Source: Escherichia coli
GTDB taxonomy: Bacteria; Pseudomonadota; Gammaproteobacteria; Enterobacterales; Enterobacteriaceae
DNA: 64,000 nt
NCBI RefSeq assembly: GCF_016903815.1
Contig: NZ_CP069973.1
Direction: 5' to 3' (one strand)
Shown in pieces: positions 37,454 through 57,292 of the stretch; the first letter of the stretch is position 1; every line of letters begins with the position of its first letter. The notes beneath the pieces are model-generated. The model was not told where the DNA came from. It saw nothing but the letters and a program-made list of their open reading frames with translations, and made no database searches. Made by a program: the position numbers and the translations under genes.

Positions 37454-40400
37454 TTAGTCTCCAGGATTTCCGGGGCGGTTCAGCTGTTCATTAAAACGTT
37501 GTCCAGGCTGATCATAAAGTGCGCGTAATGTCTCCGCGGATGGCCGCGGTTGCATTTGCTGCATGCAGGGTTTCTGGTGGTAATCAAAATACTGTGGCAG
37601 ATGCTGGATCTCTGCTTTGTTTTCAATTACCCGTTGAAGGGCTCTTTGACGCAACTCTCTTGATGATTTGTCACGGATCGATTCCAATTGTAGCTGGCTG
37701 CCGCTACTAATTCGCTTACGAGCAGCATCAAAATCAAAGCGAATAGCCAATAGACTCGGCGTAGTCTCACTTAGCTGCAATTCCCCTAATTGCACTGATT
37801 CACGCTTATCTTTAATATAAACAATGATCTTATCATCAAGTTCAAAGCTGAGGTCAGCACCGGATTCCGTAGTATATGGGTAGAGTAAGCAACCACTCGG
37901 TGATTCCTGAAAGTCAGTAGAGTCGATGTTGACTATATCTCGTAGGTCTACTTCTGTATCAGATAATGCCTGCCATAACTCAATTGGGCTTGACTCACTA
38001 CTATCGAAGTCATCTTCATCCATCTCTTGATTAGGATTAGCTCGCTCAATGATGGCATCAATTACTGGCTCGAGGTTAAACAGTAGTTCAATAAAAGTAT
38101 TACGCTGATTAAGTGAGCCACGTTGTAATGAAAGTTGAGTATTAATTTTAGCCTGGGAATATTTACCAGCCTTTATACTTTCTTCGATCGATAATCCTTT
38201 TTCATACACTATTCTATTAATAGTGCGATTATCAGGATCTAAGTCTATCAATAGCCGCTCTCCTAGGCCAGTGATGTAACAACGCAATTCATGCGCAAAG
38301 CGTGGGTTAGATGACCAGTTACATTGAAAATAATAGATCCCATCATTTTGTTCTAGAAGCTTCACTTCTTGCGGCCAATCATCTGTGCCCCAGCAAACAG
38401 GAATTACCTTATCCTGTGACTCAGACGCCACAACTTGATTAATCTCAGCTTGTTCCGGTGCTCGAATTGACTGCAGCAAAGGATCGAGCGCGATAGGTAT
38501 ACCGTCAACGGTTTGTTTTGCGCGTTCTAGCTCAGCCTGCACCAGTACTGGCATATCTTCACTAAATAGCTCCTCCACCATACGATATACTGCAAAGCAA
38601 TCTCGCCCAAAAGCATCAGTACTTTCGGGATTCTCTGGCTGGTAGCGATTATCTGCAGTTAATTCATCACTGAATTCAAGCAATCCAATCAGAGTAATTA
38701 CTGTCTGCTCCCCGACTTGTACCAGCAGTTTCTCTGGGCAAAGATCTCCATGAGGTAACTGCTTTTCATGAAAAGCATGAATGGTGTTGATCAACTTTTC
38801 CGCAATTGTAAAACGTTGGGATTGTACTAACACGTTCTCAGCAATAAACTGTGACCACGGTAGGCCATCCACATACTCGCTCACTACATACAAGCCGCCT
38901 TGTCCTAATAGTCCATAGGACTGCACCTTAGGAGTTGGCAGATTTATATGCGTAAGCTTATCGATCCGTTGCTTAAAAGCGTGGATACGGCGGTTAACAC
39001 CAGGTTGTTGAGGGGTCAAAATAACACCATCCCACAATTTTACCTGCAGAGCTTTCCCACCTTGTTCACAGTGATAACTGATGCTGCCAGTCGTAGCAAT
39101 AGCAGCAAGAGCAGAGTAAACCATAGACAACTGTTCAGGAAGTGGAGGAAACTCAATTAACACACCAACGCTGTTCATCCCTTCGCGAAAGAATTTGTTT
39201 TGCTTTAATTCTTGATAAATCTGGTTAGCTTCATCAAATTCTTGGCTATGTTCCTTAGTAGCTGCATTAAACTCATTGAGCATTATGTCCGCACGTGGAA
39301 AGCGTTTACTTGGCTCAAGGTTAAGAGCTTGCTCAAACCAGCTATTTAGAATACCGCTAAAAGGATCAGTTAATGGAGCTCTCCATTCAGGCATCTGTCC
39401 AGGAGTCAGTAATGATTCACCTGCAAAACAAATACGATAAGCAATTACAGCCAACATGAATACATCTAGGCGATAGGGCTCAACTGCTTCTTCAAAAGCA
39501 TCTTCGGGCAAAATATATGGAGCACTTTGCAATGTCGGACGCAATGACTCTAGGCTATTATGTCCCTCCAGTGAGGCTGCGCCAAAGCCAGTAACGACAA
39601 TGCTCTTCTGATCCCCTGCGTACCATAGATTGTGCGGGTCAATATCACAATGACTGATACCCAAGCTATGTAATTCCGAGAATGGAGCTAATAATGCACG
39701 AACGCGATCAATACGCTCAGATTTACTCCATCCGTCAGCTTCGCTATCTAGAATCTCATCTAATCGGCTAAAACTACGGCGTAACTCATACAGCTCACGG
39801 GCATCATCAGTTATATCCTCCTCGGATAGTTCCCTTACAGCACGCAACATATAATCCTGCATAGTTGCGCTGCCATGACGAACTAGGCGACCGACTCGAG
39901 TCTCACGCAGAGCTATCTCAGCCCACAATGTTTGCATTGCGTTTGCTACACCCAAGGCATCAAAGTTCCACTGCCGTAGCAGACCTCTGTGTTGACTATT
40001 GTCTTTGTGGGTAGCCCTGAATTCGTTGTAGACCATGTGAGGGTGACTAAAGAATGGCTTATCGTTCGCAAGATAACCGCTTTCTTTTAGTGGCAAAGGC
40101 CTGACTTTTGGTCCTTCAAAGAAGGACTTAATTATAGGTAATGCCTCATCAGAATTTGGTCGAGGCTTTCCCCCTTCAAAAAGATGAAAAAAGTTAGTGT
40201 GTTGCACCAGCTTTTCGTAATTTTTTGGGTTACCTATAGTCAAGAATTCATCACGGGTATGAACATAGCGCCTCTCACTTAATGGCAAGTTTTCAGGACC
40301 AGCTGTGCCACACAGCACTACATGAGCCTCAACATGCAAAAAGTAACCCAGCTTACGAGATAACTCTTCCTGCAACAAATCTTTTAGTCGCAGTGCATGC

Positions 40401-40678
40401 TCACGCTTGATCTGATAGGGACTTTTGCCTCGTGACTTACCATTTTGCAGCCACTTCCCCCCTTCAAATGTGATGTTACCATTCCACTCTTTAAGCTCGA
40501 CTAATAGCAGACGGTCAGCAGTAATAATTAGCATATCGATTTCCATCGACCCTTGGCTATCAGTAACAACTAAGCCAGCATAGCCAAACCAACTATCTGG
40601 TAACTGCTTAACCATCATATCAACTGTTTTGGTTTCGCTGCGGTGCAGGCCAGCACCACCTACTATCTGATACTTCAC
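37454..40678 (-). CDS. 1074-aa protein with N-terminal NERD-like nuclease domain and two protein-kinase-like regions; 3' end runs into IS3
   Basis: NERD-like motif [21 protein letters not shown]; kinase catalytic-loop-like motifs [10 protein letters not shown] and [10 protein letters not shown]; last about 9 codons and stop lie inside the IS3 inverted repeat. Confidence 0.7.
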
Positions 40679-40885
40679 GTTTTCTCCTGCACCACTAAAT
40701 TTTTGTTGGTGGTAGTCCAGTAAAAATGGATGTAGTTATCTAAGACAGCGCATAGATTGTGCCTGCCTAACCCTAAAAAGTGTAATTATGAAAAGTAACG
40801 CTAGAAATTCTATACCGTTCGCAAAGAGAACACTTTTCAAAGATATATCATCATCTTGAACATGTCACTATAATGGTGAATCCAT

Positions 40886-41042
40886 AAGATGCGAACACCA
40901 CATCTTGTGCCACTCAGCAAACAGGCTGTAGCCATACTGATAAAACTTCAGACATGGGCAGTTGAAAATGGTCTGGTCTTTACGGGAGCACATGACCCGC
41001 GTAAACCAATCAGCGAAAACACCGTAAATAAGGCCCTTAGGT
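40886..41042 (+). pseudogene. integrase gene fragment (about 157 bp copy of 19903-20060)
   Basis: Near-identical by eye to the internal segment of the integrase at 19075-20337. Confidence 0.7.
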
Positions 41043-41145
41043 GCCCTTGAACCACTATATCCAGACAGCCGTTGAGCTTAAGTTAACGTTACCGAGTGAC
41101 GTTGATATTCCCTCGGTGAGAGATAACCAAGGCACCATGAGGATG

Positions 41146-41773
41146 CTATTCGTTATAGTGTTCGAACGCCTCCGCAAGGTTTTTTACTGCCGTTAACACG
41201 TCCGGTTTAGGTATGATACTGATGTAATCGCTCTTCATCGTTTTCACGAACCGTTCTCTCATTCCATTACTCTGAGGGCTACTGACTGCCGTCGTGCAGA
41301 GCTCCAGATTCAACTCTCTGGCGAACTGCCGTGTTTCATGAGTTGTATAAGCCGAACCGTTATCGGTCAGCCACTGGATGGGCCATCCCGGTCTATCGCC
41401 AAAGCGTTTTTCTATCGCTCCTGACATGACATCCTGCACCGTTGCTTTGCCATAACCTCCCGTGCTTGCGGCCCAGTCTATGGATTCAAGATCGCAACAG
41501 TCCAGTGCGAACGTGACACGCAGTTTTTCGTCATCATCACAACCGAACTCAAAGCCATCGGCACACCAGCGCGGGTCGCTTTCCTTCACCGATATTCGGG
41601 CCTTTATGTTCCCTCTGCGGTCGTGAAGGTTTGTCATGTAATAACAACAGGTTATTCTCGCTCATTATTCGATAAACGCGATTTGCATTCACGAACTGCA
41701 GTCCTTCGTTAAGACTGCCGTCTGAGAATAGCCCGGACACGACGATAGCCATCGAATCGCTGAACAGCGTCAT
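41146..41773 (-). pseudogene. IS2-like (IS3 family) transposase OrfB remnant, frameshifted
   Basis: Translation resembles IS2 InsD ([32 protein letters not shown]...AEAFEHYNE); split over two frames. Confidence 0.6.
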
Positions 41774-41879
41774 TCGGCAGGCGATAAAGAAGGTGTCGTT
41801 ACGGGGAAGTCATCTTCACAGAGATTTTCAGTCAGTTAGCATTACCGACATTCATTCACCAACTTACCGGAGATAATCA

Positions 41880-42209
41880 ATGTCAAAACCCCGATGGACC
41901 ATTGAACAGAAAAGGCAGCACGTTGCTGCCTGGCGCGCCAGTGGTCTTACACGTCAGCAATACTGTGAACTCAACGATATTCCCTTCACATCACTTCGCG
42001 AATGGCCGCAGGATGTCGCAAAAGCTGAACGCCGGGCAAATGAACCGACCGTTCTTCCCGTTCATATTGCGCCACCACTGCATGCTGATGTACCACAGCC
42101 CGTCACGAATGAGCCAGTCACGCTCTTCCTTCCCGGCGGAGTACGGATGTGCTGTCAGCCGTCACAACTTACCGATGTCTTCAGGGCGCTCAAATATGCT
42201 CAGTCCTGA
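41880..42209 (+). CDS. IS66-family accessory protein Orf1 (TnpA)
   Basis: Small HTH-like ORF preceding the IS66 Orf2-like gene. Confidence 0.55.
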   Translation: MSKPRWTIEQKRQHVAAWRASGLTRQQYCELNDIPFTSLREWPQDVAKAERRANEPTVLPVHIAPPLHADVPQPVTNEPVTLFLPGGVRMCCQPSQLTDVFRALKYAQS

Positions 42210-42588
42210 TAATGTCTTCATCGCGATTAAACCTGTTGACATGCGCCGGGGCATCGACACACTGACGCAGTATATACAGGATGAACTCCGGTCGACATGG
42301 CATGAGGGAGCCGCCTTCGTCTTTGTTAACAAAGTCCGTTCGCGTATCAAAGTTCTCCGGTGGGATAAACACGGGGTGTGGTTGTGTACCCGCCGTCTGC
42401 ACAAAGGCAGCTTCCGCTGGCCACGTGCAAATGATGCTGCCTGGCACCTAACTCCCGACGAGTTTAACTGGCTGATTGCCGGTGTTGACTGGCAGCAGGT
42501 TAAGGGACATGACCTGACGAAATGGGGCTGGCAGAATGAACCTGAACTGCGCCCTGAAAACACGCAAAATACACTGCTAACTCAGTGA
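42196..42588 (+). CDS. IS66-family Orf2 (TnpB)
   Basis: Translation MLSPDNVFIAIKPVDMRRGIDTL...RLHKGSFRWP typical of IS66 Orf2. Confidence 0.7.
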   Translation: MLSPDNVFIAIKPVDMRRGIDTLTQYIQDELRSTWHEGAAFVFVNKVRSRIKVLRWDKHGVWLCTRRLHKGSFRWPRANDAAWHLTPDEFNWLIAGVDWQQVKGHDLTKWGWQNEPELRPENTQNTLLTQ

Positions 42589-42594
42589 AAAATA

Positions 42595-43480
42595 ATGAAT
42601 ATCCGTATCTGGAGTGGTATACTCCCCTGTATGGATATCTCCGCTCTCAACACCACGAATGACATCGAAAAACTGCGTGCTATGGCACTTACCATGGTAC
42701 AAAAAGTCATGTCGGAGAATGCCGAAAAAGAGCGGGAATTACTGGAGAAAAGCCGGCGCATCCAGCTTCTGGAAGAAATGCTGAAACTGGTTCGTCAACA
42801 GCGCTTCGGTAAAAAATGTGAAACGCTGGCTGGTATGCAACGCTCCCTGTTCGAAGAGGATGTTGATGTCGATATCGCCGCGCTTACCGCACATCTGGAT
42901 AAACTGCTCCCGCAATCCCCTGAAGAAGACGAAAAAGCGTCCCGTTCACGCCCGATACGCAAACCCTTACCGGCTCATCTTCCACGGGTGGAAAAAATTA
43001 TCCAGCCGGACACTGACCATTGCCCTGAATGTGACGAGCCGCTGCACTATATCCGTGATGCGGTGAGTGAAAAGCTGGAGTATATTCCCGTTCACTTCGT
43101 GGTGAACCGTTATGTCCGTCCGCAATACAGTTGTTCCTGTTGCCAGAAGGTGTTCAGCGGTGAAATGCCGGCACATATCCTCCCGAAAAGTGCCGTTGAG
43201 CCATCAGTCATCGCACAGGTGATCATCAATAAATACGGTGACCACCTGCCTCTGTATCGCCAGCAACAGGTCTTTGCCCGTTCAGTGTCGGGCTGCCCGT
43301 CAGTTCGATGGCTGACATGGTTGGCGCGGCGGGTGCCGCATTATCTCCCCTGGCGGCGTTACTCCATCGCGAGTTGATAAACCGTCCGGTGGTGCATGCA
43401 GATGAGACTACCCTGAAGATCCTGAACACTAAGAAAGGCGGTAAATCCTGCTCCGGTTATCTGTGGGCAACCAGCCTTCC
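42595..43480 (+). pseudogene. IS66-family transposase (TnpC), frameshifted and 3'-truncated
   Basis: Zn-ribbon CPECDEPL ... CSCCQKV, then HADETTLKILN in another frame; homology ends near 43480. Confidence 0.65.
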
Positions 43481-44274
43481 GCCTCGTCCGGATCCGCTGT
43501 TTCCAGTGTCATCAGGAGCCGGCTGCATGCTTCCCCTGCCGTTTTACCCAGCGTGGCCCGCTGCGAAAGACGGATGCGGTTTCCGGCACCCAGCCCACTG
43601 CGGTTATCGATATGGACCTTAACCGGATCGGGTTCGGTGATAAGTGCGCGGGTATCCGGTGCCAGCAGACTCACCAGAGCCCGGATGCCTTCAGCATTGC
43701 GGGTGGGTAATCGCATGGCACCCAGTAAGGCCAGGAAACGGGAAACCGGCGTTGCCACCTGTTCAGCGGTGCCGGGTATACCGAGTCCGACCAGTCCCAG
43801 CAGACACTGCGATGTGGCATCGCGCCCCCCCTCCTCGAAAGTGGCCGGATACGCATATTTTCGCCAGATCCGGTAGTACTGGGTGGTGATGCGGTGGCTG
43901 AAAATATCCAGAAATGAGGTGAGCGCCTCATGTCCTTCACGGCGCTGCGCAATATCATCCAGCCAGGACGTCGGCAGAGGTGAGTCCACCCCATACATTC
44001 CGAGAAATGTCGTGCGGATCGTTGGGGGTAATGTCGGACGGTCTTCGTCGATCTCCACCGCTTTCAGGGTGCTGACCGGGAATCCCATCCCGGGCCAGGG
44101 CCTGAATCGCACCGGGTCATCGCCCGGATGGCTGGTCGTGCCCAGTTTTGGCCCGTCCGGATTTTCCAGCTCCAGCAGCTGGCAGAAACGATAAAAACTG
44201 GCCCGCCAGATATCGTTGTTAAGGGCCAGGGCCTGCGTCAGCCCGGTACGTGCTGGCTGTGATTCTCTTTTCAT
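43429..44274 (-). CDS. tssG: type VI secretion baseplate protein TssG, C-terminally truncated
   Basis: N-terminal FYRFCQLLELE...DPVRFRPWPGMGFPVS pattern of TssG; abuts IS66 remnant. Confidence 0.6.
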   Translation of the reverse strand: MKRESQPARTGLTQALALNNDIWRASFYRFCQLLELENPDGPKLGTTSHPGDDPVRFRPWPGMGFPVSTLKAVEIDEDRPTLPPTIRTTFLGMYGVDSPLPTSWLDDIAQRREGHEALTSFLDIFSHRITTQYYRIWRKYAYPATFEEGGRDATSQCLLGLVGLGIPGTAEQVATPVSRFLALLGAMRLPTRNAEGIRALVSLLAPDTRALITEPDPVKVHIDNRSGLGAGNRIRLSQRATLGKTAGEACSRLLMTLETADPDEAEGWLPTDNRSRIYRLS

Positions 44275-45929
44275 CTCAGTCGTTTCCCTGTGGGTTGCAG
44301 TACCAGTGTGAGCTGGTTGAAAAGGTGAACATCAGCATAGAGCGCAAAGAAACGGTGCAGCATCTCCCCGAAGAGATTCACATCGCCCTCGCCGGCAAAA
44401 TTATCCATATTCAGCGTGACCTCAATGTCCACGCCACGGAGCATAAAGCCCTTTTCAAAACGGCGGATCAGGGTGTGCTTCACAGCAACGATGGCTTCAA
44501 GCCGGCGGCGGTTCATTTCATCGTCGGTCCAGTCATAGAGCGCCAGCGTCCCCCGCAGCACCTCCGGATTGTCCATCATGCTGAGAAAGTTTGATCCGAG
44601 GTGACTCATCACCCGCCAGTGAAACCGGTCATTTGCCGGGGGATACAGTGGCATCGTCGGTGCGGTCAGGTTCAGGACTCTGACGGGGACTTTGCCGGTT
44701 TTGACCACCCTGTCCAGGAGCGTACTTTCCAGCGCCCTGCGCGGAAGCTGCCCGTTGGTCGCGGTGATTCGCATCGAGAGGGACTCCGGTTTATCGGACA
44801 ACTGCTCCAGCTCGAACGAACGCCCCCCGAGAACTAACCATGTGTCATACAGGCCGGAGGGTCCCCGTTTCACACGGGTGTGGTAATAACGTTCAGGAGC
44901 ATCGTGGCGCATCATACCGCCCCGGTGCCGGAAGCTGGTGAACGGGACATAAGGGTGTCTGCCGTTCTTCACCGAGCCGTGAATGTTATCGACGCTGTAA
45001 ATTTCGGTGTGACCATCCTGAAGACGCAGCGGCCTGAGCAGGTACTCGTTATCCAGCGGGTTAAGGATCAGCGGGTCGGCTTCCAGGGTAAAGAGATTGA
45101 TAACCGGCGCACAGTGCAGGCGGAAGTTTTCTGTCTCAAAAGGCAAACCGGATGACCAGGCTTCACTGAGCACAATGTCGATTTCAAACCAGGTACTGGC
45201 CGCAGTGAGCCCAATGGTGTCGAGGCCGCGCAGTTCAACAAACATAAACTTCGGACGGAAGCTGAAATACTCCAGCAGCAACTGGTAACCACTGAAGGCT
45301 GTATCAGCTTTCTTCCACAGGCAGTCATTGTCGTCAAAGCCCATGGGTCTGCACCAGCCGTCAAACTGACGACGTCCGGTATATGTCCCGGCATGACGCG
45401 CATACATGGCATGTACACGCCGGGTCATTGCCAGATGTAGCGCAGCACTTACCGGCGCCTCTGCGTTAAGAAAAATGGCGACTTTGTCGATCCCGGCTTT
45501 ACTCCAGTCCACTTTTTCAGGGCATTCGAAGCGCAGACGGATAGCAGAGCGGCCATCGGATTCAGTATGGAGACGGGCATCTGCAAGGTGCAGCGGTTGT
45601 AGCAACACATCGCGGGTCGCCCGGTACTGGCAGGCGGTTTTATGCGGCCCGACAGGACGGGACAGAACGGAAAAGCCTTCAGCCAGTATTTCGGCCTGAC
45701 GCAGACTACGCCAGTCAGGCGAGAACTCAACGATGGCCAGCGACGGGATAGTCCGCATATAGTGCGGCCACAGCAGACTCACCAGACCTTCGGTGAGCTC
45801 CGGCAGGTCATCATCCAGCTTTTCACGCAAACGTCCCATCAGGAAGGCAAAGCCTTCAAACAGACGTTCCACACTGGGATCGCAGGCACCAGGCTTATCC
45901 AGATTCAGCATTGCTGACGTAATCCACAT
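44271..45929 (-). CDS. tssF: type VI secretion baseplate protein TssF (N-terminus possibly frameshifted)
   Basis: VERLFEGFAFLMGRLREKLDDDLPELTEGLVSLLWPHYMRTIPSLAIVEF pattern of TssF; upstream 73-aa ORF is in a different frame. Confidence 0.6.
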   Translation of the reverse strand: MWITSAMLNLDKPGACDPSVERLFEGFAFLMGRLREKLDDDLPELTEGLVSLLWPHYMRTIPSLAIVEFSPDWRSLRQAEILAEGFSVLSRPVGPHKTACQYRATRDVLLQPLHLADARLHTESDGRSAIRLRFECPEKVDWSKAGIDKVAIFLNAEAPVSAALHLAMTRRVHAMYARHAGTYTGRRQFDGWCRPMGFDDNDCLWKKADTAFSGYQLLLEYFSFRPKFMFVELRGLDTIGLTAASTWFEIDIVLSEAWSSGLPFETENFRLHCAPVINLFTLEADPLILNPLDNEYLLRPLRLQDGHTEIYSVDNIHGSVKNGRHPYVPFTSFRHRGGMMRHDAPERYYHTRVKRGPSGLYDTWLVLGGRSFELEQLSDKPESLSMRITATNGQLPRRALESTLLDRVVKTGKVPVRVLNLTAPTMPLYPPANDRFHWRVMSHLGSNFLSMMDNPEVLRGTLALYDWTDDEMNRRRLEAIVAVKHTLIRRFEKGFMLRGVDIEVTLNMDNFAGEGDVNLFGEMLHRFFALYADVHLFNQLTLVLQPTGKRLR

Positions 45930-46168
45930 TCAACAGTGCAATACGCAACCGTTCTTCCGGCCCTGCCTCTGTCTGCCGGCACTCATCCAGGACATCCTGC
46001 CATTGCCGGCGAAGACGGGGCGATTCATTCAGTTCTGTAAAACAGTATTTATCCGCCAGATAATCAATTCGTGTACGCATACTGAAAAGAATTCCGTATA
46101 AAGATTCAGCAGACAAAACTTTATCAGTCTGTAAAAATTAACGGAAGAGTCGATATTTCTCCCGGTCA

Positions 46169-46711
46169 TCACCGGATGATTGTTGCAATAACCAGTGGCA
46201 TCAGAGACTGAACAGCCGTTTTTAACGCAACGTATTGCTCTGATGTATCAGGCCGGGTAACCCGAAAACACCTTTCCACCCGACATTGTCCGCCCGTATC
46301 CATCCCCCGCCAGGTCTGCTGCAGTAAATCCACCACTTGCGAACATTGTTCATCAACTGTGACACTGGCTCGCGGGTGACAAATACTCGTCTGGCTGAGC
46401 AGCAACAGGCATCGCATTGTTGCTCCTCCATGTTGTTCCCGCAACCAGCGTAATACCACCGGCGATGATGGACTGGTCGTGTGATTACGCTCAGTAATAC
46501 GTTCATAAAAGGAAGTACAGAATGCATGAATCTGTTGCCCGTTGATGTTTCCTTCTGCCGAATGGAGCGTGAAGTGAAATGCCAGCAGACGCGGCCAGTG
46601 GTCCACCCCCTGCTGAACAAAACGCCGGATTTCCCCCGGCGCTGAAAGTAAGGCTTCGGTTATTTGCACTATTTTACCCCTGTGAATTTTGTTAAGCCGG
46701 TGCAGACACAC
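46169..46711 (-). CDS. hypothetical protein
   Basis: 180-aa ORF only; no recognisable motif. Confidence 0.3.
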   Translation of the reverse strand: MCLHRLNKIHRGKIVQITEALLSAPGEIRRFVQQGVDHWPRLLAFHFTLHSAEGNINGQQIHAFCTSFYERITERNHTTSPSSPVVLRWLREQHGGATMRCLLLLSQTSICHPRASVTVDEQCSQVVDLLQQTWRGMDTGGQCRVERCFRVTRPDTSEQYVALKTAVQSLMPLVIATIIR

Positions 46712-46936: not shown

Positions 46937-47170
46937 TCATGCTGCTCCTCGTGATTCCTCAATTCGCTGCTGCATCCACTGCTCTACTTCACTTTTGTAC
47001 CAGCGGCTGCTGCGCCCCAGTTTGATGGGTTTAGGGAAATGGCCTTCACTGATCAGCTTGTAAAACCATTTGTCGGTCATACCAGTGAAGCTGGTGATGT
47101 AGTTCATGTCGATCAGGGGATCGTCGGCACGCAGCAATACGCTGTCGTGACCTGTCATTGAGGTCAACAT
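46937..47170 (-). CDS. alpA: AlpA-family phage transcriptional regulator
   Basis: ISEGHFPKPIKLGRSSRWYKSEVEQWM matches AlpA HTH pattern; start may be internal. Confidence 0.75.
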   Translation of the reverse strand: MLTSMTGHDSVLLRADDPLIDMNYITSFTGMTDKWFYKLISEGHFPKPIKLGRSSRWYKSEVEQWMQQRIEESRGAA

Positions 47171-47238: not shown

Positions 47239-47841
47239 TCAGAGCTGGCCTGCTACGGGATACCAGGGATTACCGGCGAGGTAACGGGCTTCCGGATCGC
47301 GCACACCACGACGATCGCGGGCGAAATCACTGAACGCCCATATCAGCTCTTTGAGTCTCTCTTCGCAGTCCGGTGAACAACTGTCCAGCACCACATCCCG
47401 GGTGATCTGCTTCTGGTACGGTGCTGCTTCACCCGGTGATGCGAAGCCCAGTACGTTGCTCCAGGCATCCAGAATCAGCCGATCCAGTTCAGGGCCGTCG
47501 AAATACTCCTGTCTGACGCACAGCACCACGTGGTATTCCGGTTTTTCAGGATGACGTGTCAGGAGCCAGCAGAGGTCACGTCCGGGTGTTGCATTCATCA
47601 GCGCACTGACGGTTTCGATAAAGGCCATACCGAACCAGGTTTTTCTGTCGCTGAAGATGTTGCCATGTTCCCCCGGCAGACGAAGCAGGATCCGCCGTAT
47701 TCGGGAGCAGGACTGCTCGCGCAACACACGGTTGAGAACGCCGATGATTTTGTTCTGATAAGATGGCCAGAAGGGGGCCAGGCTATAGTCGAAATAAGGG
47801 ATAGCATTCATAAGATATGCTCCGTTATGCGCAGCCCACAA
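47239..47841 (-). CDS. inovirus Gp2-like (YagK/YfjJ family) protein
   Basis: Shares YHVVL..R motif pattern with the paralogs at 48069 and 51308. Confidence 0.55.
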   Translation of the reverse strand: MWAAHNGAYLMNAIPYFDYSLAPFWPSYQNKIIGVLNRVLREQSCSRIRRILLRLPGEHGNIFSDRKTWFGMAFIETVSALMNATPGRDLCWLLTRHPEKPEYHVVLCVRQEYFDGPELDRLILDAWSNVLGFASPGEAAPYQKQITRDVVLDSCSPDCEERLKELIWAFSDFARDRRGVRDPEARYLAGNPWYPVAGQL

Positions 47842-48068
47842 TGCGTCCTGCCCGTGAATAAGCTGACGTGTTATGGTTTGCGGATGGGGTTGATGGAATA
47901 AGTGAAGAACCGGGGCAGAACGGGAAGATCAGGTCACCGACAAGGGACAGAACACCGGATGTGGTTCAGAGTGAATGATCTCCGTTGACTTCAGTTCACA
48001 TCATTAAGCAAGGCGGTAAGGTTTTACCGACGGAATGTTTCCAGGACAGGAAGCTCAGGATTTAAGCT

Positions 48069-48635
48069 TCAGAAGTGAGGCTTACGAGGACGCCCTGCAG
48101 CAGGTCGTTCAGGAACTTCACTGCAACCGTATGCGCACAGTCCGTCTTTTTGCTCTTCTTTCGCCAGATAATGCAGGACACCGCGAATATTATCGATGCT
48201 CCCGGGATCGTTATGACGCACGGGAATGTTGATGTTGTATGTATAATGCGGCTGATATGTACAGCGGTGTGCCGAACCGCTGTTATGCGTAATAGACTGC
48301 CAGCATTCCGTAATCCGCTCCGCAAAGGGATATATTTTTTTAACCCTCTGACGATCGAGCCAGAAAACCGCATGCGCATGAAAACCATGATCAGCCGTCC
48401 ATTCAATCACCCAGAAGAAACCAACGATATTTTCAAATTGTTCCACCTGCTCCAGCAGCATACGCAACTGCAATTCAAGCCAGCGATGATCAGGTTGTAA
48501 GAAATCAGGCGTATCTTTCCTGTAGAAGAAATCCATGCGTAAGGCCCGCAGGCGGGAATAGCGTGCGACCAACTGATTGATGTGATTGTCAAGTAAAGCG
48601 GTAAAAAACCAGTTTGGTGTGTAAGATTTAGGCAT
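48069..48635 (-). CDS. inovirus Gp2-like (YagK/YfjJ family) protein
   Basis: LRALRMDFFYRKD ... FHAHAVFWLDRQ motifs. Confidence 0.65.
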   Translation of the reverse strand: MPKSYTPNWFFTALLDNHINQLVARYSRLRALRMDFFYRKDTPDFLQPDHRWLELQLRMLLEQVEQFENIVGFFWVIEWTADHGFHAHAVFWLDRQRVKKIYPFAERITECWQSITHNSGSAHRCTYQPHYTYNINIPVRHNDPGSIDNIRGVLHYLAKEEQKDGLCAYGCSEVPERPAAGRPRKPHF

Positions 48636-50179
48636 GCTGATGACTCCTGAAAGTTAATGACGTTTTAAGTGCTGTAAACGAATTAATGCTTTCGCTCATA
48701 ATCAGATCTAAAACGGTAATAACTTACAGACGGTATTTATCAGGCATGCTGTAACAGAATGGATACGTCGGTTATTAACGACACACAGCGTTGTGCTGAA
48801 GGGTATGAGTTATCTGATGGCATTGTCTATAGAGATGAGATAAACGAGGTGCGAAGAAAATACAGATTCAATACAACACAGTGAAATACAGAAAAATACG
48901 AACTGTAATCCCGCTGCCAGGCGGTTAGGAAACATATTACAACTATAAGCTCATGGTTTGTAAATTTGCTCTCAGTGAGTCTGAAAAAACGTTTATAAGG
49001 TCACCACAATAAACTCACACGCGCTTATTCAATCTGTTCTCCAGGATATGAACGTTAACGACACACGATAGCATAAGACAACATACAATGGATGAATAAT
49101 TTTCACCCAGTACCTTAAACAATACAACCGGCAACAAATATAATCAGAAATTCACTCTGTTAATTCTGTTGTTTATCCTGCGCTGTTAAACATGACGGAA
49201 CCATGGATACCTTATCAAAGAGTAAGCATTCAGTTAATCAGTAATGACAGAGAAATTGATGTTCACCAGAATAGTTAAAACACTTCAGATAAACAATCAT
49301 TGTTAAGCAAATACGGTTCATAATGGATAAATTAGAATCAATTACTGTTTTACTGAAGATGAGAATAGATGAATATCAACAATAGCGTAGTAGAGAATAA
49401 CTTACCTGAACATCATATGAGTTACAGTAGTTATGATTGAGGGATGGAGTGAATACGATAACAAGAGTAATACTAATGGAATGTGTAAAGATTGAGAGTG
49501 AGTGAAGACAGGAAGTAAATAACAATAGAGATTGTATGAAAAAGGGAGTGAATAAAGAATATATAAAGAATAAATATAATTATAGTAATAAACCTAAATT
49601 AAAATCATCCTTGTTTGATGAGTAAAAATAATTCTAGAAAATGAATCTGTCTGAAAACTCTTTCTCAGAGATTAACCGATCAGATGCTCAACGGACTCAA
49701 TAAATTGGCTGAGTCAGGTTACCTCATCCACACTCTATTTGTTTCTAGAAGGATCTACCATTTTGTTCATCTACCGGAACACATCAATTTAGTAACTCGA
49801 TAATATCGGTTATGTAGATATTTATCGTTGCTACCAATGCCTAGATTATTATTCTCCAAGTATTTTCTTGACTTACAGGCTAATTTTGAAACAAATGTCA
49901 TGCTATTTTAGGAAAAGAACCTATGCAAAAGTCTGCTATGAGCGAGGAGCAGATATTCATCTGGTATACAAAGACAATATCGCTTAAGTCATCAGTGCTG
50001 CCACTTTAACCACTAGCTCTGCTCTTTTTGGACTTTTGAGCTAAAAATTAAATCTGACAGTGTGATAAGGTGCAAGTTTCTGAAAATACGCCAGTTGTTT
50101 TACACTCAAAAGCCCCCATTACTATCTGATGTTAATGGCGCAGCAGTTATCTTTCAGATTATTAAGGGGAAACAAGAGT

Positions 50180-50884
50180 ATGGCAAGATGTACAGCTCCT
50201 GTACGTGGACATAGCTCAGCAGCAGCTGCTGCTGCCTGTCCCGCATGTCGTAATCGCAGTGGTTATCGCCGCAGTAGCTACAGTTATGATAGTTACCCTT
50301 CTTACTCATCAGGCTCTAGCGGTGGCGGAAGTTATGGAGGCAGTAGCGGTGGTTCCAGCAGCAGCGCGAAGCCACGTTGGTCAAAATCAGGGTCTTCCGT
50401 TTCTTACACAACAGCCCAAGTACAATCACTCACACCAATTCGACAAGCGGTAGAGAAACTTGCCATTGAGCAACCTGATCTGCGTGATGTCTTTCTTTGC
50501 CATGCTTGGGATGACCGACAAGGTATTGCCAAAGAGTTACACGATTTGCTCGAAGCGGCAGGTGTCAAAGTATGGTTCAGCGAAAAGGATCTTGCCCTTG
50601 GTGTTCCGATGATGCGTGCCATTGATAAAGGATTAGCAAACTCTCGAATCGGCTTGGTTTTAGTGACACCTGCATTGTTAAACCGTCTTCCTAAAGAAGG
50701 CGTTGCTGATAAAGAACTTTCCGCCTTACTGGCAGGCAACCAACTCGTTCCCATCGTGCATAACACGACGTATGAAGCTCTCCGTAATGTCAGTCCTTTG
50801 CTTGCATCCCGAAGCGGCCTCGACACGGGAGAAGATACATTGGCAGTTGTTGCAACAAAAATTGCAGAGCTGATCACTGTTTAG
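50180..50884 (+). CDS. TIR-domain protein with Ser/Gly/Tyr-rich low-complexity N-terminus
   Basis: RBS aagggga then ATG; TIR-like motifs DVFLCHAWDD, VWFSEKDLALG, SRIGLVLVTPALL. Confidence 0.7.
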   Translation: MARCTAPVRGHSSAAAAAACPACRNRSGYRRSSYSYDSYPSYSSGSSGGGSYGGSSGGSSSSAKPRWSKSGSSVSYTTAQVQSLTPIRQAVEKLAIEQPDLRDVFLCHAWDDRQGIAKELHDLLEAAGVKVWFSEKDLALGVPMMRAIDKGLANSRIGLVLVTPALLNRLPKEGVADKELSALLAGNQLVPIVHNTTYEALRNVSPLLASRSGLDTGEDTLAVVATKIAELITV

Positions 50885-51307
50885 TTTATCCAAGCCACCG
50901 TTAAATATTTCCAGCTCATGAATCTGGTCTGCTATTGCAGGCCAGATATCAGTCAATACTGAAAGGTTTGACCTGCTCCCCGTTGATTAACATAGACTGA
51001 TATAGCAACTTCCGCTTTTGGCACAAAGCAGACCATGAGAAGATAGACGCTATAACATTTGAGTCCTACCAATCGATCTGTTCATTTCCATAAATGGCAG
51101 TAAATGCAAATAACCAGAACAGCCAGGCGCTTTTCGACTTATGGTCGATGTTGCAAAGAGTGAGGAGTGGAAAGCAAGCGTGCGAACGAAAGTAGATGGC
51201 AATCCATTGCATTACTTCAGGACGACTTTTCAGAAAGCGAGCTAAGGGCGTCAGCCAACGCCCTTACCGTGGCATAAGCTCAGGCACCGGATGCCGTTTT
51301 ACAGGGC

Positions 51308-52039
51308 TCACCTGCCATCCAGTAAACGCCCCGGCCCACGACTGCAACCATAATTACGTTGACCAGAACCGTCATGCTGCTTCGTCTCATACTTCACGAG
51401 ATAACAGGCTCTCTCCATGGCTTTCTGCATCGCTTCCACATCACCACGCTTGACCCAGAGCACAGCGGATCCACCAGATTTTTTGTCAGAAGCTTTCCGG
51501 GTATCAGAACATCCACCCGACAAAGGCGTATCATCGGAAGAAGGGCGAGCATCAGATGATGCCGGTTTACGGAAAGGCGTCCGCCTGGAAAAATGAACCA
51601 GTCCATTACCCTGCCAGGGTTCAAGATGCAGAGCGCTACACCATGCCAGCTTGATCAGCGTCGCCAGCGAAGAAGGAACGGTGAAATCCCCTAGCGAGCA
51701 CCAGGTATCTTTGTTGAGCAGTAATATCACGTGATAATGTTTCCTGCCTTTTTCCTTGCCAAACTCCCGACACCAGAAATAACGCAGAGTGGTTGCACGC
51801 ACACGCTTGTTGGCACGTCGTTTATGTCGCTGGTAAGCCTGAATTTTTGCTTTCAGGGATTCGAAAAAACGAGAAATCACCGCTGAATCCGAATCGGGAT
51901 CCATGATGGTGACAGGCATATACTCAGGGAAACGTAAATCCATCCGGATTAACGAGACGACACGGTGTTGCGCCAGGGCACTGTTGAGAATACTTTCAAA
52001 ACGGGATAACCAGTAAGCATTGTGTATTGGTTGATTCAT
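51308..52039 (-). CDS. inovirus Gp2-like (YagK/YfjJ family) protein
   Basis: VSLIRMDLRFPEY ... HYHVILLLNKD motifs. Confidence 0.65.
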   Translation of the reverse strand: MNQPIHNAYWLSRFESILNSALAQHRVVSLIRMDLRFPEYMPVTIMDPDSDSAVISRFFESLKAKIQAYQRHKRRANKRVRATTLRYFWCREFGKEKGRKHYHVILLLNKDTWCSLGDFTVPSSLATLIKLAWCSALHLEPWQGNGLVHFSRRTPFRKPASSDARPSSDDTPLSGGCSDTRKASDKKSGGSAVLWVKRGDVEAMQKAMERACYLVKYETKQHDGSGQRNYGCSRGPGRLLDGR

Positions 52040-52883
52040 GATGAGAGATCTCCGTTGATTTGGATTGACTTCACATCATTAATCACCGCGGTAAAACTTT
52101 ACGGCATCCCGCCATTGAGCAACGCCAATGGCTCCTGATTAAAACAGAATGAATCCCCCACGAAGAAAAAATAAACCTACACGCAGAGTAAAACACACAA
52201 CAACGGCATAAATGGTTTTTAAAAACTACAAAGCCTGAAGGGAAACGGATCCACAGAACGTGCAAACAAAACACCAAAAACGCAATCAGAACGCTTTCTG
52301 CTGCTGTGAATCAACAACAATACCAAAACCTACAGCTTAACCACAAAACTCAATCACAGAGCCGAATAGCGTGTTTAAAACCTGTTTACAGATAACCCTG
52401 CCACAAGAACAAAGTTCACCAATATCAGAATCGATTTTCTCATCCTGAAAATGTTACGTTTCACTACACAGCATAAAAACGATTAACTATTGATAACGTA
52501 AACCTCATCTGAATCAAAACACCAGAACCAATCATCACGCTTTTCCTGAAAAGAGCCTTGCGCTGAGAAAAAACACCAGGGTCAGTTAATCATCTCATCA
52601 ATCTCATCGTTACAAAAACATCCATAAAACCATTTAACAAAATCATCGTAAGCACACAGTAAATCACGCCAGGTTATCTCAGCCAAATTTTCGTTTTACA
52701 TAAAGACACTTGTCTCAGGTTAACGACTAAAAACACAAAAACTCAGAAAAGGTTAAACGTAACTTCAGAAAAATAGAATATCATATTGATTGCTTAAACA
52801 GGAAAGATTGTTTTGTAGTAGCATTAAGCTGATTTTAGTTAACGTAAAAACAGGACTGACAGGTTTACTAAACTGGATGTGTA

Positions 52884-53100
52884 TCAGACAAAGCAATGTG
52901 TATAACAATACTTAATGAAAACACTTGTAGAATTGTTTATGAAAATACGTGTATGTCTGGTAAAACACTTAGTAGAAAATACGTGTATAACACTTACTGA
53001 AATGCTTAGTAAAAATACTTAGTAAAATATGTGTAGAATTATCTATTTAAAAAGATATGTATATAACACTTAATAAAAACATGTGTATATAGTATCATAC
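52884..53100. repeat. iteron-like array of degenerate direct repeats in AT-rich intergenic DNA
   Basis: Recurring GTGTATAACA(A/C)T..A.TGAAAA and TGTAGAATT.T.TAT..AAAA units, 2-3 copies each. Confidence 0.4.
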
Positions 53101-53730
53101 CGACATTCTCAACATCTTCAGACTTCCATACATACTGGGTGTTGATTTCTCACTTTTACAGCCAGCATGGAGTTTTCTGTCCTAAAAACAGAGCAGATTT
53201 ACTCTGGAATTATTTTTCTACCCCCGTATTTCAGGCCCCAGAAAAGACAATCCGAAGCAAACCGTTTGTCAGCCTCCATATCATCTTTTACCCCCGGAAA
53301 GTGATCGCGTTTACAACCAGAATGACAGCCATACTGATTATGTCGTCTCCCGGCCCCCTTCACATATAACATGCATGTCTGTCATTGCTTACTGCTCCAC
53401 ATGACCGGATTTCACATACAGGATGCACATTCAGTGTTTTTATCGCTACTATAACAGACAGATTACTGTCGTCTTTACTCTTCAGATTGTTAATCTGACC
53501 ACAAGAACAGCCGAACGGCAAAACGCCCTCCACAAGGGGCACATGAACCATAGTTGATAGCATGTTTTTCCTAATCAAGGAATAGTTCAGGAATATTTTA
53601 TTGCATTAATAACTGGCGAATAATCGTTCTGTGAACACAAAATGCTTTTATTTGTAAATTTTATTGCATTGCACTCGTTTTATTGATATGGGGTTTAATA
53701 ACAGATAACCCGGAAAGAAGGAGAAAACAG

Positions 53731-54522
53731 ATGACATTACGGATTAACGATCAGGGGCGAGATAAACAGAATCAATTTTTATCGAAAAATGGAGAAAATC
53801 TGAATTCGTTAAAATCGCGTCATGTGCAGGATAGGCATTTACCTGAATGGCTTAAGGATAAAGTTGCAGCATTCTGGTTTTGTCTGGTGATAAAGGATAT
53901 GAAAGTGTCAGGGAGCAGTTACTATGAACTTACCATGCAACTTCCCACTTCTGAAGAATCTGTTTGCATCAGTAAGCTGTCATCCTCAACCCATGAGATT
54001 CGGCTGGAGATCATCAGGCGATGGATTGATAGTGTAGCGCAGATAGAAACGGAAGCTTTTACTAAAAATCTCGTTGATGCCATCTATAAAAACTGGAAGG
54101 AAATCGGGAACAAAAACCAGGCCACATGGCTTAAAAAAAATCCGGAACAACTCGAGTGGGCATGGAAATATATTAACATTCGTATTCCCGAGTCACATTT
54201 AACCTGGTTTTGCCCCGTCAATAACGAAGAGAAACGCATTGCCATCTTAGCATTGCTTAAAATACTGTATCCCGGAGATATACCATGCCAGTACAACGAC
54301 AAAGAGTTTCATGTCGGGATCTGCGCTGAAGAACATTTTTACAGAAGAATGCACGACGCTTTCAGAAAACAGTTTATCGACGGGAAAAAAGATAAACGGG
54401 TACAAATTAACGTAAAGATATCACCGTCCGCAAAAAGCGCTCTGGACAGACTGACCAGAGCGAGGAAAACAACACAGCAGGCTATTCTGGAACAACTGAT
54501 TCTGAACGGTAGACTGGATTAA
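53731..54522 (+). CDS. hypothetical protein with C-terminal RHH/HTH-like tail
   Basis: RBS aaggag then ATG; tail ...SAKSALDRLTRARKTTQQAILEQLIL; contains an A8 homopolymer at 54133-54140. Confidence 0.5.
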   Translation: MTLRINDQGRDKQNQFLSKNGENLNSLKSRHVQDRHLPEWLKDKVAAFWFCLVIKDMKVSGSSYYELTMQLPTSEESVCISKLSSSTHEIRLEIIRRWIDSVAQIETEAFTKNLVDAIYKNWKEIGNKNQATWLKKNPEQLEWAWKYINIRIPESHLTWFCPVNNEEKRIAILALLKILYPGDIPCQYNDKEFHVGICAEEHFYRRMHDAFRKQFIDGKKDKRVQINVKISPSAKSALDRLTRARKTTQQAILEQLILNGRLD

Positions 54523-55505
54523 CTTTCACTACTTCCACTCCTGGCAGTTTTCCTCTTTTTGTAGTGTCTCCCGGCTGCAGGCATCAGGTACTTTTCCGTC
54601 ATTTCGTTGCAGAACTCTTCAATGTAGTTAATCAGCTTCTGGTGTGCTTTCACCTTTTCTTCCCCGGGGGACGCTTTCAGATAAATGTCCTCCTTTTCCA
54701 CAAGTGTATTTATAAACTCTCCCGGACATCCCTGGTTATAAAGCAACGTGAAAAACAACACATTCCCCAGTCTCTCCAGTAACTGCGATTTAACCCTGTA
54801 TTGTTGTTTGCTGAGGATTGATTGTTTTATAAAGCTTAGTCTTGTTAAAAGTTGTTCAAATCCCGGTTCCAGTTTAAAAACAGATTTTAATACCAGGGAC
54901 TGATACTCCTGATAAAAAAGTTCAAACGTCGGGGATGCAGACTGACGAACAGATTTGGCTACAACCCATGGACTAAATCCCATGATTGGGATTTCCTTCG
55001 CTCCCTCCAGCGCACTCAGAGGTAGTCCAGCAATCCATGCGTCCAGCTTAGCCGAATCAATATCCCCGCTCAAAACCTCATACAAACTGCCCGTGAACGG
55101 TTGAGTCGGTTTTTTTGTTGTTTTACCTTCTGATTGCCTGAATCCATCCACTTTTCTCCGGATATTACGCGGAATCAGCATAAAAGGCGGGACATTAAGT
55201 GATAAACGTTTACCCGTCATACGATACCAGTGGCCCACCTCAACCTTAATCCGTGTATCTGGCCTTGTATCTGGCCTTGTATCTGGCCTTAGCTCAAGTG
55301 CTATTATGTTAAGCAGGTACAGATAACGCACCGTATAACAGTCAAAATGTTTCTCCGGATCAAACGGCTCTGATCGTTCTCTGCACACAAGTCCGCTGCG
55401 CTTCAGTATTCGCTGGGTATCTTTCCAGGCCTTACTCTGAAGAATGGTGGTAACTCTGGCTTTATTAGCAATCTCACGCAGCGCATCACTTTGTTGTGCC
55501 GTCAT
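54519..55505 (-). CDS. hypothetical protein containing (RPDT)x3 tandem repeat
   Basis: ORF with RBS ggaggg before MTAQQSD; convergent with, and 4-nt overlapping, the previous gene. Confidence 0.5.
   Translation of the reverse strand: MTAQQSDALREIANKARVTTILQSKAWKDTQRILKRSGLVCRERSEPFDPEKHFDCYTVRYLYLLNIIALELRPDTRPDTRPDTRIKVEVGHWYRMTGKRLSLNVPPFMLIPRNIRRKVDGFRQSEGKTTKKPTQPFTGSLYEVLSGDIDSAKLDAWIAGLPLSALEGAKEIPIMGFSPWVVAKSVRQSASPTFELFYQEYQSLVLKSVFKLEPGFEQLLTRLSFIKQSILSKQQYRVKSQLLERLGNVLFFTLLYNQGCPGEFINTLVEKEDIYLKASPGEEKVKAHQKLINYIEEFCNEMTEKYLMPAAGRHYKKRKTARSGSSES
55253..55292. repeat. 12-bp in-frame tandem repeat (tggccttgtatc, about 3 units)
   Basis: Seen directly; encodes RPDTRPDTRPDT on the minus strand. 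Confidence 0.6.
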
Positions 55506-56614: not shown

Positions 56615-57292
56615 ATGAATACCAGAATTCTTTTTCCCCTGCTGTTCACTGTGGCATCCTTCTCCGCCTCCGCCGGCAACTGGGCTGTCAAAAACGGCTG
56701 GTGTCAGACCATGACGGAAGATGGTCAGGCACTGGTAATGCTGAAAAATGGCACGATTGGTATTACCGGCCTGATGCAGGAATGCCCGAATGGCGTACAG
56801 ACGCTCCTGGGCAGCCGTATCAGTATTAACGGTAACCTGATCCCCACATCACAAATGTGTAATCAGCAGACGGGATTCAGGGCTGTTGAGGTGGAAGTCG
56901 GACAGGCGCCGGAAATGGTCAAAAAAGCCGTTCACTCCATAGCAGAGCGTGATGTGTCCGTTTTACAGGCATTTGGTGTACGAATGGAATTCACCCGCGG
57001 TGATATGCTGAAGGTCTGTCCGAAATTTGTCACATCACTTGCCGGTTTTTCCCCGAAACAGACACCCGCCATTAATAAAGATTCCGTCCTGCAGGCTGCC
57101 CGGCAGGCATACGCCCGGGAATATGACGAGGAAACAACAGAAACCGCTGATTTTGGCTCTTACGAAGTAAAAGGCAATAAGGTTGAGTTTGAAGTGTTCA
57201 ATCCTGAAGACCGTGCGTACGACAAAGTGACCGTCACGGTTGGTGCTGACGGTAATGCCACCGGTGCCAGCGTTGAATTTATCGGAAAATAG
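56615..57292 (+). CDS. hypothetical secreted protein
   Basis: Signal peptide [20 protein letters not shown]. Confidence 0.55.

Follow-up and report, generated by a model that had tools for sequence, protein, structure and literature searches.

Described repeat systems and the setting of the array

Rep proteins of the HUH type bind short direct repeats, as known for the AAV Rep protein on its tetranucleotide (GCTC)n element, for RepB on the direct repeats of pMV158, and for the iterons of geminiviruses and circoviruses. Their sites consist of three to five nearly identical repeats within ~100 bp of a conserved nick-site hairpin. The origins of SaPI/PICI satellites and of phage lambda form a second group of comparable loci; the lambda origin contains four dyad-containing iterons with a period of ~24 bp next to an AT-rich region. 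Satellite and lambdoid origins are located inside or directly after a gene for a helicase-type or O-type initiator and have a fixed number of repeats.

The window analyzed here, a stretch of 64,000 nucleotides from Escherichia coli, corresponds in reverse complement to a part of the chromosome of E. coli strain 222 (NZ_CP020516.1) and covers an island inserted at tRNA-Phe (pheV), with the island end near the kps capsule genes. A degenerate head-to-tail tandem array with sub-units of 12–13 nt and a main period of 24–25 nt occupies positions 52876–53099 (plus strand). It lies inside a 1.69 kb gene-free gap between a minus-strand CDS (51308–52039), encoding a 243-aa protein of the YagK/YfjJ family (inovirus Gp2-like), and a plus-strand hypothetical CDS (53731–54522). 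For 52884–53100, the initial annotation had reported iteron-like, degenerate direct repeats between a Gp2-family gene and an unknown gene, in intergenic DNA rich in AT. The quoted units were found there, and the flanking genes and the base composition were also described correctly: no other 200 bp of the window have a GC content as low as that of the array (0.23).

The backbone to the right of the hypothetical CDS is of the CP4 type and carries a YeeP/YfjP-like GTPase, DUF905, DUF932, antirestriction, RadC, and DUF987 genes and a YeeU/CbtA toxin-antitoxin system. Other nearby genes (50129–50884, 46937–47170, and ~40000–46700) include those for a TIR-domain protein, possibly an anti-phage gene, and an AlpA-family HTH protein, together with tssF/tssG pseudogenes of a T6SS and IS66 remnants. 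The same stretch encodes a very large AAA-domain protein, and a group II intron and an H-NS paralogue are found further to the left.

In every homologous locus, the Gp2-like gene comes with a gene-free module of ~1.2 kb (52040–53217) at 74–100% nucleotide identity, and the array is located ~860 bp upstream of the gene in every case. The DNA on either side of this gene-plus-module unit is variable cargo, the HUH gene being the sole constant partner of the array. Homology to the right of ~53217 persists, with much higher divergence. A site-specific cargo junction at 53217 was considered and rejected, since the downstream families are still homologous, though diverged, and form no sharp junction at this position. 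Two further candidates were discarded. A mobile HUH transposon unit was not supported by the comparison of loci, in which no terminal repeats or target duplications were seen at the module boundaries, and a hidden small ORF at 53167–53304 had lost its start codon or was frame-shifted in several alleles.

Homologues of the array region were detected in 1861 of 5426 complete E. coli genomes (~34%), that is, in about one-third of them, within islands that act as shuttles for virulence and anti-phage cargo. The full-length Gp2-like gene was present in 1873 of the same genomes. Array and gene co-occur almost 1:1, a pattern that would be explained equally well by mere physical linkage within one lineage. 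As for a homologue of the module in K-12, CP4-57 and CP4-6 are both without it. Searches of the phage collection gave no sequence similarity of the module to any phage, and none was found on small plasmids. Four PLSDB plasmids matched, and the one examined, a 31.7 kb match considered as an excised circular island, turned out to be an IncF plasmid containing an island fragment. Only one IMG/VR contig carried the module, and none of the metagenome contigs checked was circular.

Anatomy of the repeats and variation among alleles

The array consists of ten plus-strand blocks, each terminated by a run of A: 52896–52921, 52922–52945, 52946–52965, 52966–52979, 52980–53002, 53003–53015, 53016–53027, 53028–53055, 53056–53079, and 53080–53099. 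An extra GTGTAT core at 52879 (plus strand) can be counted as unit 0. On a finer scale, ~16 sub-units of 12–13 nt were recognized. They occur in two flavors, A (ATACGTGTATAAC) and B (A(T/C)ACTTAGTAAAA), which mostly alternate, an A+B pair making up the 24–25 nt repeat. The units are 12–28 nt long, 65–85% alike, contiguous, and in a single shared orientation throughout. When the whole 64 kb was scanned, copies of either unit type with up to two mismatches were confined to the array and to its plus strand. Tandem Repeats Finder described the region as a period-13 array with the consensus AAAATACTTAGTA, and autocorrelation peaks were observed at lags of 12, 24 (z 5.1), 37, and 48.

The repeat content was compared with 500 dinucleotide-preserving shuffles of 52884–53100. 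The real sequence contained 28 shared 8-mer pairs vs. a shuffle mean of 3.0, and 54 14-mer matches with up to two mismatches vs. a mean of 1.3, the latter value being reached by 0 of 500 shuffles. Overall, z-scores ranged from 9 to 26, and the repeats far exceed an AT-rich background. The suggestion that the array is not a CRISPR was also confirmed: CRISPR repeats are near-identical, ~28–37 nt long, and separated by unique spacers, whereas the degenerate units adjoin one another directly, and the annotation of the window lists no cas genes. Phased A-tract curved DNA, in which A-tracts recur every 10–11 bp, was rejected as well, no autocorrelation peak being present at lags of 10–11 (z 0.5–0.7). 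By-eye comparison of the array with Ter/Tus, IHF, LexA, and partition-site consensus sequences revealed no match.

Variation was analyzed across 78 loci for which both flanks were available, taken from genomes of E. coli and from gut metagenomes. The array was present in all 78, and its units were retained in these related islands. There were 39 distinct arrays of 92–211 nt, the window allele being the longest. The alleles differ by whole-unit blocks of ~12, 13, 25, 34, and 52 nt, as read off the alignments, and this copy-number polymorphism between strains is of the kind that characterizes VNTRs or minisatellites. Left-flank and right-flank alleles were found in all four possible combinations among the 78 loci, which indicates recombination across the array.

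Nucleotide diversity (pi) was calculated from a 33-allele alignment. In the Gp2-like CDS, it was 0.067, 0.041, and 0.106 at codon positions 1, 2, and 3, respectively. The A/C-rich spacer at 52130–52800 had a value of 0.147 and appears to evolve at about the neutral rate, whereas the 60 nt directly 5′ of the CDS had values of only 0.012–0.06. The aligned array columns gave 0.09–0.10, similar to synonymous sites, and no exceptional invariant runs were found within the array; together, these data indicate no strong selection footprint on it. The elements kept among alleles are the arms of a palindrome, described below, and the ATGAAAA-YAC-TGT cores, while centers and unit tails are variable. The retention of arms and cores and the fact that the array was never lost, its minimum length being 92 nt, may be taken as softer signs of constraint.

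These data bear on an explanation according to which the array would be a functionless AT-rich minisatellite, that is, decaying island DNA prone to slippage and recombination, with at most non-specific H-NS binding and probably silenced by H-NS. We regard this explanation as rather unlikely on balance, though almost as probable as the leading proposal described below. The array resembles bacterial minisatellites in its block-wise copy-number variation, degenerate units, and recombination across the repeats, and the 39 alleles in 78 loci, the diversity close to that of synonymous sites, and the neutral spacer around the array are consistent with such an origin. It differs from them in that it occupies a fixed position relative to one gene in ~1860 genomes, with no locus having lost it and the dyad arms conserved among variable centers. 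The single orientation of the units and a geometry shared with a second Gp2-like gene of the island (see below) also argue against a minisatellite. Even if it were only that, the array would still be a highly polymorphic marker for island typing.

Operator, RNA, and plasmid-origin alternatives

An operator-like 20-bp palindrome, AAACACTT-GTAG-AATTGTTT, is located at 52919–52938. Many alleles possess perfect 8-bp arms (AAACACTT-N4-AAGTGTTT), and the center varies while the arms are kept. Dyad-symmetric sites with conserved arms are typical for operator arrays, and a dimeric regulator other than the HUH protein might bind the ACACTT/AAGTGT dyads cooperatively. It would act on one or more promoters where the array ends on the right, or on a leftward promoter from which the Gp2-like gene would be transcribed with a long 5′ UTR. 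We consider such an operator array unlikely, yet close in probability to the HUH platform proposed below. The best sigma-70-like site of the region (TTAATA-17-TATCAT, score 10.4; 53070–53098, plus strand) reads rightwards and coincides in part with the final unit of the array, at its right end, and a weak promoter-like site (TTGAGA-17-TATACA; 53084–53112, minus strand), the −10 element of which is without the final T, is conserved among alleles and reads leftwards into the array. Both would suit transcriptional control. However, the −35 hexamer of the rightward site belongs to a variable unit, and most alleles have a poor version of it, with scores down to 6. Promoter-like sites are also rarer in the region than expected by chance (1 found vs. 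5.9 expected), and the genes downstream of the array vary in identity and orientation between loci.

Among candidate regulators, the island itself encodes an AlpA-like HTH protein. In related loci, the gene beside the GTPase is annotated as a WYL-domain or helix-turn-helix regulator, and its positional counterpart in the window is 56615–57292; a regulator of this YfjR/WYL type or a host factor could also be considered. Against any of them stands the finding that the motif does not recur elsewhere in the island, as it would in a regulon.

A DnaA-dependent plasmid-like oriV of the theta type, composed of iterons, DnaA boxes, and an unwinding element, was largely refuted, and we assign it almost no probability. 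A perfect DnaA box, TGTGTATAA (the complement of TTATACACA), is present at 52897, several units are one mismatch away from a box, and AT-rich 13-mers occur; an AT-rich unwinding region, as in an oriV, is provided by the array itself. However, the six DnaA boxes in the window compare with 6.3 expected, and the sequence at 52897 reads TGTGTACAG in most alleles. A DnaA-box cluster of the oriC type was rejected on the same grounds, namely one perfect box, chance frequency, and no conservation. No Rep_3, RepA, or pi-type initiator was found by Pfam among the neighboring genes, and on plasmids the module occurs solely as island fragments in large plasmids, at least one of them IncF.

An RNA-level element is very improbable as well. 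It could be a small RNA running from ~53105 to a hairpin at 53189–53217, or a repeat antitoxin of the type III ToxI kind. The promoter-like site at 53070–53098, terminator-like hairpins at 53189–53206 on both strands, and a fairly conserved right flank are compatible with transcription of a small RNA. Nevertheless, folding of the right flank gave z-scores of only −1.4 and −1.7, the consensus structure was weak and nearly devoid of covariation, and several alleles show decay of the hairpin and its T-run; the candidate small RNA with terminator was rejected. A search of 51000–55000 against Rfam returned nothing real. Repeats of the ToxI type are near-identical, ~34–45 nt long, and followed by a terminator and then a toxin gene; the units found here are degenerate and unequal in length. 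A ToxI-like array was also discarded given that the genes downstream are variable and often on the opposite strand, with no toxin gene consistently following the array.

The HUH gene as a proposed partner of the array

The 243-aa protein encoded at 51308–52039 (minus strand) contains the motifs RVDLRFP, KHYHVILLLNKD (HUH), and YLVKYETK (catalytic Tyr and Lys) and matches the Pfam families PF11726 (YagK/YfjJ) and PF23343 (REP_ORF2-G2P). In an alignment of 21 family sequences, with identities down to 22%, residues H101, H103, Y213, K216, and K220 were invariant, corresponding to the HUH motif KHYHVILLLNKD and to YLxKxxTK. The PHROG families for replication initiation matched the protein weakly. 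A sequence search of PDB with the family profile gave no match. The AlphaFold model had a pLDDT of 75.6, and its best PDB fold matches were the Rep nuclease domains of AAV/parvoviruses and geminiviruses, at a weak level (E 0.04, TM ~0.3). A disordered insert of ~40 aa (residues ~153–189) is specific for the subfamily and missing from shorter relatives. A species-wide genome scan with the protein as query returned two loci only. K-12 YagJ was tested as a homologue; it has the same length, yet is unrelated (14% identity). At the left end of the conserved unit, a hairpin followed by a T-run (AAGGGCGT..ACGCCCTT; 51244–51265, minus strand) is likely the terminator of the Gp2-like gene.

Pseudogene homologues of the Gp2-like gene were also observed (P0044, P0068 of L017; L015), some of them frameshifted versions of 214 aa without the Tyr motif and one with an internal stop. 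All Gp2-like pseudogene loci found still carry the array and the module.

Published work offers little on the function of this region or protein; we found nothing beyond annotation mentions, a paper on Pseudomonas satellite islands, and an anecdotal observation for E. coli Nissle, in which an integrase and a Gp2 gene gained copy number. Islands of a related kind in Pseudomonas, with intY, alpA, RadC, and a Gp2-like gene in their core, act as phage satellites (bioRxiv 10.1101/2024.08.29.610337), and a replication module is therefore expected in this class of elements.

We tentatively propose that the array is an iteron-like binding platform and an easily melted cis-site for the adjacent HUH protein, a proposal that leads the field of explanations while staying well short of even confidence. 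In this view, the gene for the YagK/YfjJ HUH endonuclease on the backbone of tRNA-integrated E. coli islands would have a cis-acting control region, and the array would be the AT-rich core of that region, with multiple sites. Several copies of a DNA-binding protein could load side by side on the units of the same orientation, the core of which is ...TGAAAA-YAY-N-TGTAKA with ACACTT/AAGTGT half-sites, much as AAV Rep, RepB of pMV158, or geminivirus Rep load on their repeats; the HUH protein itself would be the most likely ligand. With its 23% GC, the array might then melt readily and offer a place for nicking or for the onset of replication of the excised island, and binding to it could also result in autoregulation. 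Of these steps, protein binding, the HUH protein as the binder, and a role in replication or transfer rather than in control of transcription are all points that we infer. Directly seen are a real array with a fixed place in every homologous locus, its linkage to the HUH gene, the extreme AT content, and the operator-like dyads.

The locus shares with the binding sites of HUH Rep proteins the short direct repeats of the same orientation, the non-coding, AT-rich, and easily melted DNA, and the position beside a gene with HUH and Tyr motifs. The best fold matches of the neighboring protein are the nuclease domains of these very Reps, albeit weak (E 0.04). An HUH-type initiator gene next to the repeats is also a hallmark of rolling-circle double-strand origins. 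On the other hand, the direct repeats that might serve as a Rep-binding locus, although significant, are degenerate here, with ~10–16 units of variable number, and the 860 bp that separate them from the gene are a long way between a Rep protein and its origin. Neither a conserved hairpin nor a nick site was found next to the array: for the consensus fold of the right flank from 19 alleles, the energy was −6.8 kcal/mol and the covariation term −0.42, the putative loop TTGAT varied (TTAAT, TTGGT, and TTCGT), and the inverted repeats of the left flank were short and unconserved. Other members of the YagK/YfjJ family are not accompanied by such arrays. Comparable arrays were absent upstream of the second Gp2-like gene of the window, in locus L019 (43% identity), and at 22 viral-contig loci (28–41% identity), while locus L098 contained a two-copy 52-nt repeat. 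The lack of arrays at Gp2-like genes of 28–43% identity, the retention of the array beside broken Gp2 genes, and the closeness of its pi to that of third codon positions count against the proposed HUH platform and would rather suit a minisatellite. It also counts against an HUH platform that no phage or small plasmid uses the module, that a single IMG/VR contig carries it, and that none of the metagenome contigs checked is circular.

The initial annotation had likened the repeats to arrays bound by regulators or replication initiators, and this held in part. The resemblance is borne by the AT-rich repeats of one orientation, the linked Rep-like gene, and the 20-bp palindrome of many alleles. 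It is weakened by the unconserved DnaA box, the missing hairpin or nick site, the distant Gp2-like genes without arrays, the absence from phages and small plasmids, and aligned columns no more conserved than synonymous sites. The array still looks like a protein-binding or origin-type site, a function that we infer from the sequence.

The period of ~24–25 bp, the internal dyad symmetry, the A-runs, and the AT-rich setting are shared with satellite and lambdoid origins. The island context, with an integrase of the P4 type and an AlpA-like gene, is shared as well, and related islands behave as satellites. In contrast to these origins, no helicase-type or O-type initiator is present, and sequence similarity to the phages of the collection is absent. 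The wider idea that the whole 1.2 kb module serves as the replication, transfer, or packaging origin of the common tRNA-integrated satellite-like islands of E. coli, nicked by the YagK/YfjJ HUH protein, is doubtful, and we hold it to be distinctly improbable. If this origin reading were true, it would provide the first functional assignment for the YagK/YfjJ family and the CP4-type backbone, and the number of units could tune origin activity. If the array were the binding or origin site of the protein, a concrete pair of cis-element and trans-factor would be defined, which would explain how a major class of E. coli islands is maintained and mobilized. The kind of element, whether iteron/operator-like array or VNTR, is known; this array is undescribed, and the family of its partner protein is uncharacterized. 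The array is real, lineage-specific, and hypervariable, and nothing in its sequence is categorically new.

The second YagK/YfjJ gene of the window (Gp2-like, 188 aa; 48069–48635, minus strand) has its own gene-free upstream region of ~1.5 kb. The AT-richest patch of that region, ~49380–49650, contains the second-lowest-GC 200 bp of the window and lies ~0.8–1 kb upstream of the gene, in a geometry like that of the array. Repeats in this patch are weak, with GGAGTGAATA present twice, and 10 of 300 shuffles reached the same score. An AT-rich patch at a similar distance of ~0.8–1 kb from a second Gp2-like gene supports the HUH platform proposed for the array.

Additional elements were noticed around the array. 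The spacer at 52130–52800 consists on the plus strand of 41.6% A, 23.7% C, 21.6% T, and 13.1% G. This strand asymmetry was also present in the homologous locus L017; a rightward RNA from the spacer would be C-rich and G-poor, that is, rut-like, the minus strand being G+T-rich. In 18 of 53 loci assembled across the full module, ~290 bp of the spacer were replaced by ~0.85–1.2 kb of DNA (e.g., L003:1301–2631, L013, and L018) with a 176-aa ORF (WP_000778605.1) divergent from the Gp2-like gene. This ORF had no Pfam or PHROG match. The spacer version of the window may represent a deleted state.

Directly 5′ of the Gp2-like CDS, a conserved block at 52047–52104 (minus strand; pi 0.012–0.06) contains the palindrome CCGTAAA-GT-TTTACCG. 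It is one of two minus-strand copies of a 56-nt element, in which the palindrome CGGTAAA-N2-TTTACCG is followed by TGATTAATGATGTG and CAACGGAGATC, and no part of the module is more conserved (pi 0.012). The second copy (47977–48029) is located ~170–220 nt 5′ of a CDS for a 190-aa hypothetical protein (47239–47811). The 56-nt element looks like a shared promoter, operator, or 5′-UTR element. The direct repeats TTTACT(AAA)CTGGA at 52864–52877 and 53198–53208 flank the array together with its conserved right flank (~340 bp) and may be a coincidence. Finally, TTTTATTGCATT occurs in two exact copies 63 bp apart (53596–53607 and 53659–53670) upstream of the CDS at 53731, a score reached by 0 of 300 shuffles, and this pair may serve the cargo gene there as an operator or promoter element.
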